Source of the DNA: Eledone cirrhosa
Taxonomy: Eukaryota
NCBI GenBank assembly: GCA_964016885.1
Contig: OZ024741.1
Coordinates: 368,094,001-368,158,000, forward strand
DNA length: 64,000 nt
Direction: 5' to 3'
The notes beneath the pieces are model-generated. The model saw only the letters and a list, made by a program, of their open reading frames with translations, searched no databases and had not been told where the DNA came from. Below, in pieces: positions 39,855-57,093 of the stretch (position 1 is the stretch's first letter; each line of letters begins with the position of its first letter). The position numbers were made by a program, and so were the translations under genes.

Positions 39855-40012
39855 TGTCTGTCTGTCTGTCTGTCTGTCTGTCTGTCTGTCTGTCTGTCTG
39901 TCTGTCTGTCTGTCTGTCTGTCTGTCTGTCTGTCTGTCTGTCTGTCTGTCTGTCTGTCTGTCTGTCTGTCTGTCTGTCTGTCTGTCTGTCTGTCTGTCTG
40001 TCTGTCTGTCTG
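39855..40012. repeat. (TCTG)n microsatellite, left flank of Tx1 array
   Basis: Perfect tetranucleotide repeat of about 158 bp. Confidence 0.98.
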
Positions 40013-40186
40013 AGGATAGTAGACGTGTGTCATATCGCTCTGTGATTTGGATTTTTACCTGCTAATTTTGTGAGTGGATTTTTTTGAATTATTTTGTATA
40101 ATTAACTGTAACCCCTAGTCTGGGACTCTAGACGTCGGGTAAATATATTTTCACCCCTTTTGGGGTGAAAAATAAATATTTGAGAA

Positions 40187-41947
40187 ATGTTTATCGATAT
40201 CGTTGATAACGATATCGTCGAAAACGATATCGCCATATTGGAAGCGAACGCCACGCCGACCAAAAAAACAAGCGGGAAAGAGGGAACAACAGTTCAAACT
40301 GTTGAACAACCCCTCCTCTCCAATGAAAAAAAGAATTTCAATTCAAATGAAAAAATTAATTTTCAAGAAAAAAATAGCACCACAAATAAGGAAACCAACA
40401 ACATTACAACAACAAACAAAGACAAAATTTCTTTTGCCCAAACACTTAGGAGAGCCACGGAATACAAAGCCATTGACATCACGAACGCCAAGGAAAATTT
40501 GCTAGAGGCTAGAAAATACGTATCTTTTGGGGAGGATGGTTCTTTTACGATCAACTCCCCAGAAGAAGTGCGTGAACAGATTTACAAGAATACCGTAAGC
40601 TACAGAACCATAACCAACGAAACGAGAAAGCCAGCGCAATTGACCGAAAGTCAAATCGAGCTGGTTCTGAAAGAAATTAAAAATGACATACTCTTTATTC
40701 AAAGAGGAAAGCTGTATGCCAGCATTATGGTCCGAATGAAGGACGAAATGCTGGCTCAGAAATATTCGGTGGCACCTATAGTGTCACCACATTACACCTT
40801 CTTCCCCACATATAAAGGAAGAAGAACACAAAGGATAAGAATGTGGAGCCCTACGCCAGAAATTAACATCTGGTCCGTCCTAACAGGATTTACCGACCTA
40901 GATAAGGACATACTAATTTCAGCAGGGGAGTCCACCAGTGGACTGTTCGGGGGGAAAAGTCTGGAGGTTCTCTTACAGATGACACCTGAGAGAATCTCCG
41001 GAATACCCGACCGAGTGCTACTGGATGGGCGAACCTACATAAATATCACAGTGGAAGGCAGGAGACCCTCATGTTACCACTGCGCTGGCAGAGGTCACCT
41101 GAGGACGGCCTGCCCTCTACTAACAACAAAAAAACCACTGCTACAAACACCACAACAACAACAAAAACAACCAGCACCACCATCACAAAAACAACAAAAT
41201 ACACTACCATCACCACCAGAACAACAAAAACCAACAACACCACCACCACCACCACCACCACCACAACAACAACATCAACAACAGCTCAAGAAAACAACCC
41301 AAAACACGGTCCCACCCAGCCCCACCCCACAGAACACAAATACAAAAACAGTTCATACACAACCCGGAGATATACCCCTCCCCTCCAATACGGAAGAGGA
41401 GCTCATATCGTCGGAAGACGAGGGGGCTCCCTTCCAAAAAGTGAAAAGAAAAAAACGTACACACACCACAACAACAAAAATAACCCCACCTGACAACACA
41501 ACACAGACAATAAAACGCAAACTCACTCAACAACAACAAGCAAAAACAAACACAACAACACAAAAACTCTACACATACATAAACAAAAACAATGAAAACC
41601 TAACTTTAAAAATAGAAACCAACCCTTCGATACAAACCGAAGGGCCGAATTTCGTAACGGCAATGGGGCTCCCTAACCTGAAAATGGTGAAAATCCCACT
41701 TGACATTTTTAAAACTTTAAAAGACATGTACCCTGAGGACGTGGGCCCACCCTGCACCAGGCCACTCAACCGCGTCCTCCTGAAAGGTTTTCCCCTCCCC
41801 TCCTCAAACACCCACACAACTCCAAAGATCCCAACCCCTCCACACACCAATACCCCCACACCACCACAAACCACCACCCCACCCATCAACCCCGCCACCA
41901 GCCCCATGGAAACTGAGCGACCCGAACCCCGGGACGCAGAGAGGTAA
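40187..41947 (+). CDS. Tx1 ORF1 (gag-like, CCHC zinc knuckle, P/Q/T-rich tail), copy 1
   Basis: 586-aa ORF with CYHCAGRGHLRTAC knuckle, immediately upstream of ORF2. Confidence 0.9.
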   Translation: MFIDIVDNDIVENDIAILEANATPTKKTSGKEGTTVQTVEQPLLSNEKKNFNSNEKINFQEKNSTTNKETNNITTTNKDKISFAQTLRRATEYKAIDITNAKENLLEARKYVSFGEDGSFTINSPEEVREQIYKNTVSYRTITNETRKPAQLTESQIELVLKEIKNDILFIQRGKLYASIMVRMKDEMLAQKYSVAPIVSPHYTFFPTYKGRRTQRIRMWSPTPEINIWSVLTGFTDLDKDILISAGESTSGLFGGKSLEVLLQMTPERISGIPDRVLLDGRTYINITVEGRRPSCYHCAGRGHLRTACPLLTTKKPLLQTPQQQQKQPAPPSQKQQNTLPSPPEQQKPTTPPPPPPPPQQQHQQQLKKTTQNTVPPSPTPQNTNTKTVHTQPGDIPLPSNTEEELISSEDEGAPFQKVKRKKRTHTTTTKITPPDNTTQTIKRKLTQQQQAKTNTTTQKLYTYINKNNENLTLKIETNPSIQTEGPNFVTAMGLPNLKMVKIPLDIFKTLKDMYPEDVGPPCTRPLNRVLLKGFPLPSSNTHTTPKIPTPPHTNTPTPPQTTTPPINPATSPMETERPEPRDAER

Positions 41948-41970
41948 GTGCCTCTTTCTTTGCCACCAAC

Positions 41971-56300: not shown

Positions 56301-56768
56301 GATAAGCTCTACAGACACGGGCGCCCGGGTAGGGACCCCTCGAAAAAGATCTGTCCCAGATGCGTGCGCGACGAGGAAACCGTCGCGCACGCATTGGTGC
56401 ACTGCCCAGGCGTTGCCGATCTGTGGGGCTATGTCGAACGACTGCTGTCACGGGTGGGACCAATTAGGTTGACCACCGAGTCCATTGTAACGATCAAGCC
56501 GCCTCCCCCCTTCAAAAATGAAGGAGAGGCGGTCTTCCTCTGTGTAATAGCCATGGTAAAAGAGGCTATATGGTGGACGCGTCTGAAAGGGCTGAGGTCG
56601 GACACCTTTCTCTCCGGCCAACAACTGGTCCTTTTCTTCCGATACCATTTCGGAAGAAGGATCAGGATGGAGAGAGAGGTGCTCCACTCCAGCCAGTTTT
56701 ATGAAAGGTGGGTGAAAGTTGCGAGAATGGCCCGTGTGAATGGGCCTTCTCTCTACCTCAGCCTGTAG
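53331..56768 (+). CDS. Tx1 ORF2, copy 3
   Basis: 1145 aa intact APE-RT-CCHC. Confidence 0.95.
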   Translation: MAVLRVGCLNARGLGSPWKQAKLLSDLRSQCVNVMVICEARISSMQQLTPTFDDFEMHASLCQPGGGGGVVVLLQKHLGLATQTVHLDPEGRLVVLDLGNGEGEAFRLVAVYAPFGAMRSDFFHRLETFLGTSRSLLLVGDWNGILDARWDYVGACPDRGGCNSLKGLIGRFDLADRYRLDFPTVPTWTWSNNSGQSRSYLDRFLVRIKDRDFLSCPEMLMVGYSDHKLVTCVVHLDRTHRQGPGYWKLNLSLPASRAYRDRIRTLVKEQLTGAIVNNRWWGSLKREIRVVSIGVSKELASDRNRKERELVVNVEEAMRSGNVARVQASRTVLNQFFDAKHEGCVVRSKIRALGNEGTKAVSWARVTEAKSGIKSTIRSLRDQDGRLILEPKQMCEAFQRHFAQLFGRGGEPVGDVDFGPYLDGLPRLSDREARSCDGPISAAEIGDVLSLCGKRKSPGLDGLPYELYINMPDLFPDLLEAVYCNWQQNGRIPCSVTKGVVSLVRKDENKGDDISNFRPITLLNAELKILAKVLAKRLALVVGGLVGDAQTCAIPSRSIHDNLHLMRYIIERVGNEPGFGGALINLDQSKAFDRVDHGYLDAVLAAAGFGPVFRGWITAMHSSRICSRVKVNGYLSEPFEITRSIRQGCPLSSLLYVLTLEPLLRKLELLQGIPLEPGLRKAVSAYADDVTVMVSTASEIEAIGTLLEEYERLTGAKLNRDKSVALQLGEWRGKAMSCDGIVGRWTEGPVKLLGVWFGPDLQVEKNWGEVTNRVFALTQKWAECKLSLKGRAEVANAYIASVIYYRLTVVPCPGEILAKMERALFYFLWKKRSPLVRRSICCQHPLKGGLGMPWLKMRKHALRLRHLHVFLTGQPVWAPFVRRAFPRLVSLTELQSWVKQRPRKLGDWHTECAQALTALWQADPAIDGDSTSSFYRGLVVSGCDDALGEALGMEEDELASLFGRTFGPGPMDNFQKSLAWQCYRGALPVRDKLYRHGRPGRDPSKKICPRCVRDEETVAHALVHCPGVADLWGYVERLLSRVGPIRLTTESIVTIKPPPPFKNEGEAVFLCVIAMVKEAIWWTRLKGLRSDTFLSGQQLVLFFRYHFGRRIRMEREVLHSSQFYERWVKVARMARVNGPSLYLSL

Positions 56769-56991
56769 GTGGAACAGAAAGAAGGGAGCACCCTCTCTTT
56801 GTGCTCCCGTGGAGAAGGGTCGCACACTTTTTTTGCGGGGGTGTGTGTGACCCCAAAACGATCCCTCCCTATTGAGGACCTTCTTGTTATTATTTTGTTT
56901 GTTATATTTTTCTTACTCGATTTTTATGTAAACTCCCCCCACCCATGTACATGTCCCTTTCTTTTGTGCCCTAGTGGCAAATAAACAGAAA

Positions 56992-57093
56992 TCTGTCTGT
57001 CTGTCTGTCTGTCTGTCTGTCTGTCTGTGTCTGTGTGTGTCTGTGTGTGTGTGTGTGTGTGTGTGTGTGTGTGTGTGTGTGTGTGTGTGTGTG
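56992..57093. repeat. (TCTG)n grading into (TG)n, right flank of Tx1 array
   Basis: Direct reading. Confidence 0.97.

Follow-up and report, generated by a model that had tools for sequence, protein, structure and literature searches.

Organization of the locus

The window analysed here (the whole 64-kb stretch G000:C2:368094001-368158000 of a 3.0-Gb assembly) holds three 5.6-kb copies of a long interspersed nuclear element (LINE), which lie head to tail on the same strand between TCTG tracts and are 99.4-99.7% identical. They very probably form a stack of a young L1/Tx1-type LINE family that inserts in (TCTG)n genome-wide, likely by target-primed reverse transcription. The features of the array are listed below in window positions (ORF, open reading frame; RT, reverse transcriptase; APE, the endonuclease domain).

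39855..40012, plus strand: left (TCTG)n tract of 158 bp, whose final few units may have been carried in by the element
40013..45629, plus strand: copy 1, 5617 bp, ORF1 and ORF2 both open
40187..41947, plus strand: copy 1 ORF1, 586 aa, with one CCHC knuckle and a Pro/Thr/Gln low-complexity half
41971..45408, plus strand: copy 1 ORF2, 1145 aa, with APE, RT and a C-terminal zinc motif
42535..42567, plus strand: copy 1 predicted APE bB6-bB5 hairpin, ORF2 residues 189-199
45630..45741, plus strand: spacer 1, (TCTG)28, 112 bp
45742..51351, plus strand: copy 2, 5610 bp
45916-47667, plus strand: copy 2 ORF1, 583 aa
47691-51128, plus strand: copy 2 ORF2, 1145 aa
51352..51371, plus strand: spacer 2, TTTG(TCTG)4, 20 bp
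51372..56991, plus strand: copy 3, 5620 bp, a mosaic whose 5' part resembles copy 1 and whose 3.7-5.5 kb part resembles copy 2
from 51546, plus strand: copy 3 ORF1, frameshifted, 435 aa (against 586 and 583)
53331-56768, plus strand: copy 3 ORF2, open, 1145 aa
56992..57093, plus strand: right tract, (TCTG)9 of 36 bp (to 57027), grading into (TG)n

All three copies begin with AGGATAGTAG and finish with AATAAACAGAAA. None has a poly(A) tail, and no further TCTG or CAGA run of three or more units occurs elsewhere in the 64-kb window. The element probably extends two bases beyond these limits at either end, which would place the true ends of copy 1 at 40011 and 45631. A preliminary description of this DNA had reported three same-orientation copies of ~5.6 kb with a common start, an end directly at the TCTG tract and no poly(A), with tracts of ~158, ~112, 20 and ~36 bp; the coordinates and ends were verified, and the tracts measure 158, 112, 20 and 36 bp. 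Its term 'three intact' elements holds for ORF2, open over 1145 aa in every copy, but not for the frameshifted ORF1 of copy 3. Likewise, copies 1 and 3 end against (TCTG)n as it had stated, whereas copy 2 meets TTTG, which is the norm of the family (TT at 87 of 103 3' junctions). The substitutions that it called private do separate the copies pairwise (35, 18 and 22), but many of them are family alleles also present in copies elsewhere.

Insertion into pre-existing (TCTG)n tracts

The family was sampled through exact genome matches to its 5' 17-mer (67) and its 3' 21-mer (219), both being lower bounds. The 100 stretches analysed cover 64 of the 67 5' sites, the window included, and comprise 40 stretches taken from the first 100 listed 3' sites; they gave 105 copies with a 3' end, 90 of them full-length, in a sampling enriched for full-length copies.

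A TCTG run lies directly upstream of all 54 full-length copies that have no element end within 400 bp upstream: 44 show five of five units within one mismatch, four show three to four, and six were judged to be TCTG runs from the printed flanks. The remaining 36 of the 90 are preceded by a family or sister 3' end. A full-length copy without upstream TCTG was sought among these 54 first or solo copies and none was found. The upstream flank units (n = 360) comprise 270 TCTG versus 9 TCTA. At the 3' junctions (n = 103), T occupies +1 in 102, with TT in 87 and TC in 12, afterwards mostly TGTCT, while T, C and T at +5, +6 and +7 recur in 103, 101 and 102 junctions, respectively; the bases at +3/+4 are AG or TA where the local tract carries those variants (17 junctions). 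Downstream, 79 of the 103 flanks have four to five of five units within one mismatch. The family lies far above the level of >20% of flanks that PMC4494074 uses to define target specificity.

Some of the upstream TCTG is probably element-borne (see below), so that TCTG upstream is by itself not decisive for targeting; since such a leader could imitate a target repeat, tract variants served as barcodes. At 49 loci whose flanks are free of element sequence, non-TCTG 8-mers located 24-224 nt upstream were compared with those lying 8-208 nt downstream. Flanks of the same locus share degenerate 8-mers (Jaccard 0.139 versus 0.019 between loci; permutation p 5e-5), and the own flank ranked first at 17 of the 49 loci; the pure tract of the window is uninformative. 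Furthermore, about 60 restriction-site-associated DNA reads of another sample (X13) join the element 5' end to a flank that is present once in G000 (C4:230059324). There, the assembly has an empty (TCTG)5 in a degenerate tract, without element, which is the sole run of more than two units within 300 nt. The X13 reads imply six TCTG units upstream of the insertion, exceeding the total of the empty site. The presence/absence difference between individuals is thereby established for one insertion, and the (TCTG)n specificity put forward in the preliminary description is borne out by upstream flanks, barcodes and empty site alike: the family sits almost only inside (TCTG)n and was inserted into pre-existing tracts in fixed phase and orientation.

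Older subfamilies start TCTC-AGG or TCTTT-GAT, and the two bases preceding AGGATAG vary with the element; as judged from these junctions, the element would extend from TGAGGATAG to ...AAATT, with the cut at TC^TG. Long fixed target-site duplications were considered and rejected, as solo copies lack them and matches of 16-123 nt are confined to array spacers and pure tracts; duplication lengths of 0 and 4n are not separable inside a repeat.

A probable carried 5' leader

The five upstream units are exact TCTG at frequencies of 0.71-0.87, as against 0.3-0.45 from the third downstream unit onwards. Three loci whose copies differ by 1-2 nt have TCTC at unit -3, and a CCTGGCTG variant recurs in two unlinked copies that are almost identical over 3.1 kb; in the single flank inspected, this variant does not occur again. 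Sharing of rare upstream variants by near-identical unlinked copies is supported by permutation (median p 0.004-0.005), and in the sister family seven of ten 5' ends share one variant at unit -2. This pattern makes it fairly probable that the copies carry a short target-like 5' leader, the alternatives being tighter upstream recognition or gene conversion.

Protein identity, age and activity of the family

ORF2 matches the Pfam families Exo_endo_phos (APE), RVT_1 and zf-RVT, the last slightly below the cut-off. ORF1 gave no Pfam match, and its region resembles zf-CCHC clusters at 0.92. The best PDB match of ORF2 is human L1 ORF2p (E 1.9e-51, residues 7-858), while R2 proteins reached 4.8e-18 or weaker, so that ORF2 stands nearer to L1 than to proteins of the R2 type. 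For the APE domain alone, PDB searches yielded no more than weak L1-EN matches, which sufficed to anchor the hairpin start. With ORF1 followed by an ORF2 that has an N-terminal APE, an RT and a C-terminal cysteine/zinc motif, the element has the layout of the APE-type non-LTR (non-long terminal repeat) L1 group, to which it belongs on the evidence of its predicted proteins.

Named proteins related to the RT region come from Argonauta hians (68%) and Acanthosepion pharaonis (50%) and next, at 33-42%, from turtles and fish; they suggest a cephalopod, probably octopus-like, host. Labelled Tx1 proteins were absent from the RT-region hits and cluster members, and look-ups in ESM Atlas, NCBIfam and clusters gave no clade name. 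In an RT tree of 33 of 37 rows, built without labelled Tx1 references after three turtle rows and one fish row were dropped by a length filter, the family joins the Argonauta and Acanthosepion proteins (98/95), and together they belong to an open group that also includes a carp protein; plant L1-like and jockey-like rows fall elsewhere, and the deep forks of the tree are open. Sequence motifs and this placement suggest the Tx1 clade.

ORF2 is open in 47 of the 90 full-length copies, and both ORFs are kept in 41. Copies located on C2, C14 and C23 are separated by 1-2 nt. Such near-identity across chromosomes, together with the filled/empty polymorphism, supports a young and active family with recent spread, in agreement with the preliminary description. 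RNA folding of the 5' junction is no better than that of shuffles (z -0.5), and that of the 3' end (z -2.4) arises in part through pairing with the repeat.

Two further observations concern the same sequences. A donor-like AG|GTAAGT overlaps the ORF1 stop (window 41941-41948) and an acceptor-like ...CAGCCTGTAG|G overlaps the ORF2 stop (window 45396-45409); both have equivalents in copies 2 and 3, each occurs in 88 of the 90 full-length copies, and the two motifs seem to bracket ORF2 in an intron-like fashion. In runs X5 and X6 (organisms B and C), related sequence is abundant at 80-99%, mostly over ORF2.

Formation of arrays

The 67 exact 5' sites represent 42 loci, and 37 of the sites fall in 12 clusters, each same-strand and with up to nine copies. 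Array spacers range from 12 to >200 bp, and 22 of 27 short ones are multiples of four. The 11,017 overlapping genome matches of (TCTG)6 provide a rough estimate of the background: the first 100 listed represent about 25 tracts by hand count, therefore a few thousand tracts in all, and the clustering is apparently well above chance.

The window copies differ from their nearest copies elsewhere by 8, 12 and 15 positions and among themselves by 19-35, and at many loci sister elements of 72-89% identity are stacked in the same orientation beside family copies. Nearer relatives elsewhere and same-orientation stacking with sisters thus argue for repeated insertion.

Arrays grow by recombination in addition to insertion. 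Site incompatibility is lower under 300 bp (0.33 versus 0.51, p 2e-4, 43 loci), indicating recombination, and mosaics similar to copy 3 occur at other loci. The array at C2:402.7 Mb holds an identical copy pair with identical 136-bp spacers, and that at C2:103.4 Mb shows a 5'/3' hybrid gradient with equal 60-bp spacers. In the nine-copy, 52-kb array at C3:358729419-358781088 (L091-L096), near-identical copies alternate and the alternating pair shares a 78-bp deletion, which suggests duplication of a two-copy unit. The same-strand clusters support the array building put forward in the preliminary description, with recombination as a second contributor. Separately, copy pairs at C1:228.47 Mb and C4:306.38 Mb (L112-L114, L126-L128) lie 11.5 kb and 5.6 kb apart with a degenerate TCTG-based satellite between them.

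Sister family in (TCTA)n and the endonuclease contrast

Outside the array, a decayed, 5'-truncated sister element (58965..61458, minus strand; 76% nucleotide identity) has (TCTA)7 at its 5' junction. The sister 3' motif has 12,109 genome matches, of which 30 loci were sampled; 22 align to the LINE at 73-83%, and 25 have more TCTA than TCTG downstream. The 12,109 matches were rejected as a copy number, since 8 of the 30 sampled loci were not alignable to the element. These eight (L191, L200, L208, L210, L213, L214, L217 and L218) carry the motif followed by TCTA, TC or (ATT)n repeats and may represent a short interspersed nuclear element or further families. Among sister copies truncated within the locus, TCTA lies directly upstream in 6 of 13, and the upstream flank units of the sister (n = 40) comprise 25 TCTA versus 0 TCTG. 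An open ORF2 frame of 1150 residues is present in 6 of the 11 sister loci checked.

The two families are 86% identical in RT and 78% in APE. Comparison of 77 TCTG-family and 15 sister APE domains revealed 48 near-fixed differences, two of them in the hairpin, whose counterpart in L1-EN probes the minor groove (PMC1950540). Hairpin residue 193 is N in 90 of 90 TCTG-family loops and R in 29 of 35 sister loops. One sister lineage (L234 / L111, C1:10.03-10.04 Mb) has Y at this position and mixed TCTA/TCTG flanks, and possibly represents an intermediate target. The spread of TCTA over several sister lineages points to TCTA as the ancestral target, and the TCTG family probably arose from a still-intact, abundant sister lineage by a TCTA-to-TCTG shift.

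A wider proposal can be made tentatively: co-active sister LINEs may split TCTG and TCTA niches through few endonuclease changes, among them the R-to-N change of residue 193 as a possible target switch, with each RNA 5' end carrying its own target and each insertion seeding the next. Such self-propagating microsatellite homing that discriminates a single base would be of a kind not yet described.

Proposed mechanism and alternatives

The targeting would act through the APE domain, whose predicted nick lies on the (CAGA)n strand, facing TC^TG. The nick would then prime reverse transcription at the end of the RNA (...AAAUU, without poly(A)). The RNA likely starts with ~8-20 nt of TCTG-like sequence, which would let the end of the complementary DNA (cDNA) pair with the upstream tract; such pairing would make insertions precise and mostly full-length, and would yield a net TCTG gain where the 5' end joins the tract. 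The new TCTG run may serve as a target again, so that later copies would land directly upstream in the same orientation, while gene conversion and unequal exchange would subsequently mix, and sometimes multiply, neighbouring copies. Endonuclease specificity and the RNA steps are predictions from sequence.

Several observations weigh against this account. The own flank was not ranked first at 32 of the 49 barcode loci, many tracts being pure or short. The repeat gain at C4:230059324 concerns one locus, one consensus and one junction, and could reflect tract-length variation. Among 15 shortened copies, eight are uninformative (internal deletions, chimeras, a gap or locus edges) and a TCTG-like tract precedes only three of the other seven; in addition, no tract surrounds two short 3' remnants (L158 and L188). 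Such remnants and shortened copies could have arisen through later deletion or through insertion off target. The leader test is fragile, with a worst p of 0.05-0.11 across resamplings and few loci; one copy pair 1 nt apart has different upstream units, and ectopic gene conversion could mimic shared leader variants. The mosaic structure of copy 3 and a rarer allele common to copies 1 and 3 leave room for local recombination. Lastly, among the read pieces listed, none bridged the junction of window copies 2 and 3 with 31 letters on each side.

The choice between TCTG and TCTA could alternatively be guided by RNA, an endonuclease of loose TCTN specificity being assisted by pairing of the RNA 3' end (priming) and 5' end (second strand). 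Strong downstream conservation limited to ~7 nt is what primer pairing would give, target-like 5' leaders are indicated in both families, the two families share phase and often the same mixed tracts, and melanogaster-type R1 elements also carry upstream target sequence (PMC2718515). This explanation is nevertheless rather unlikely, as the bases at +3/+4 follow the local tract variant at 17 of 103 junctions and not a fixed RNA tail, hairpin residue 193 tracks the target across several sister lineages, and the Tx1L endonuclease alone is sequence-specific in vitro (PMC1950540). In-place multiplication of one insertion through unequal crossing-over, followed by conversion from distant copies, finds parallels in the arrays at C2:402.7 Mb, C3:358.7 Mb and C2:103.4 Mb, and copy 3 equals copy 1 over the 5' 3.2 kb save two sites. 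For the window, it is improbable: every copy has a nearer relative at another locus, the spacers are unequal (112 versus 20 bp) with different beginnings, and duplication cannot yield same-orientation stacks with sisters only 72-89% identical.

It is hardly credible that TCTG is a mere 3' tail, with a carried 5' leader, of a randomly inserting element. The leader is probably carried and the upstream tract is missing in four of the seven informative shortened copies, which fits such a tail, but the two sides of an insertion share variants peculiar to their locus, copies are clustered at 12 loci, and an empty site already holding (TCTG)5 contradicts it. An assembly artefact that multiplied fewer real copies would agree with the lack of a read or contig seen spanning the array; it is very unlikely in view of the 18-35 sites at which the copies differ, mostly by alleles present at other loci. 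Repeated insertion into (TCTG)n, as set out above, is the reading retained.

Other features of the window

A degenerate (CCTAAC)n/telomere-like repeat of ~78 units (2884-3352) overlaps ORFs at 2848-4758. Remnants of unrelated LINEs lie at 12127-14412 (minus strand; a 761-aa RT frame of another clade), 22906-23757 (minus strand; an RT fragment, then a PHD finger) and 31442-32440 (plus strand; a PHD-finger ORF).

Comparison with known systems

No TCTG- or TCTA-targeting LINE was found in the literature searched, Repbase, Dfam and subscription papers being outside the search, in agreement with the preliminary description, which was aware of no described TCTG-specific family. Thirteen recently active L1-Tx1 families with 421 near-full-length insertions are reported from Octopus vulgaris, and homologues of the TCTG family may be among them; no target-site analysis was found in the excerpts of that annotation (PMC13282606).

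Tetranucleotide-targeting LINEs (Tx1 families, Waldo) and re-insertion arrays (R1) are already known. Kibi in (TC)n and Koshi in (TTC)n of teleosts, and the crocodilian Tx1-1_Crp group in (TTCC)n/(TTTC)n (PMC4494074), are likewise APE-type, L1/Tx1-like insertions in pyrimidine-rich microsatellites, the Tx1-1_Crp group also targeting a tetranucleotide. As set apart by these descriptions, the present family differs in its TCTG target (TCTA in the sister), its invertebrate host and its mostly full-length head-to-tail stacks; with (TCTG)n in place of (TC)n, (TTC)n, (TTCC)n or (TTTC)n, it falls outside Kibi, Koshi and the Tx1-1_Crp group proper. WaldoAg1/2 and WaldoFs1 target ACAY and MinoAg1 targets AC (PMC3812793); Waldo is similarly APE-type and tetranucleotide-microsatellite-specific, but differs in target and in clade (R1, according to a title cited there).

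Drosophila R1 forms tandem arrays in 28S ribosomal DNA (rDNA) by inserting where the target is regenerated, at the 5' end of copies already in place, and melanogaster-type R1 transcripts carry 6-27 nt of upstream target, giving precise 5' junctions (PMC2718515). Re-insertion at a regenerated 5' target is thus common to both systems, whereas the rDNA target of R1 is unique and its duplication fixed at 14 bp, in contrast to the dispersed repeat, the variable spacers and the solo copies without long duplication seen here.

The mechanisms of APE-type microsatellite targeting are not well understood, according to a review (PMC3812793), and loop grafts between distant endonucleases did not cleanly transfer specificity (PMC1950540). 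The two young families, both with open ORF2s, have APE domains of 78% identity and targets that differ in one of four bases, and they provide a narrow natural contrast for endonuclease specificity, while degenerate tracts serve as barcodes for junction mechanics and polymorphic insertions as before/after pairs. In this 3-Gb animal genome, LINEs reshape microsatellite loci into arrays of 17-50 kb, and the family works like Kibi and Koshi with the stacking of R1.

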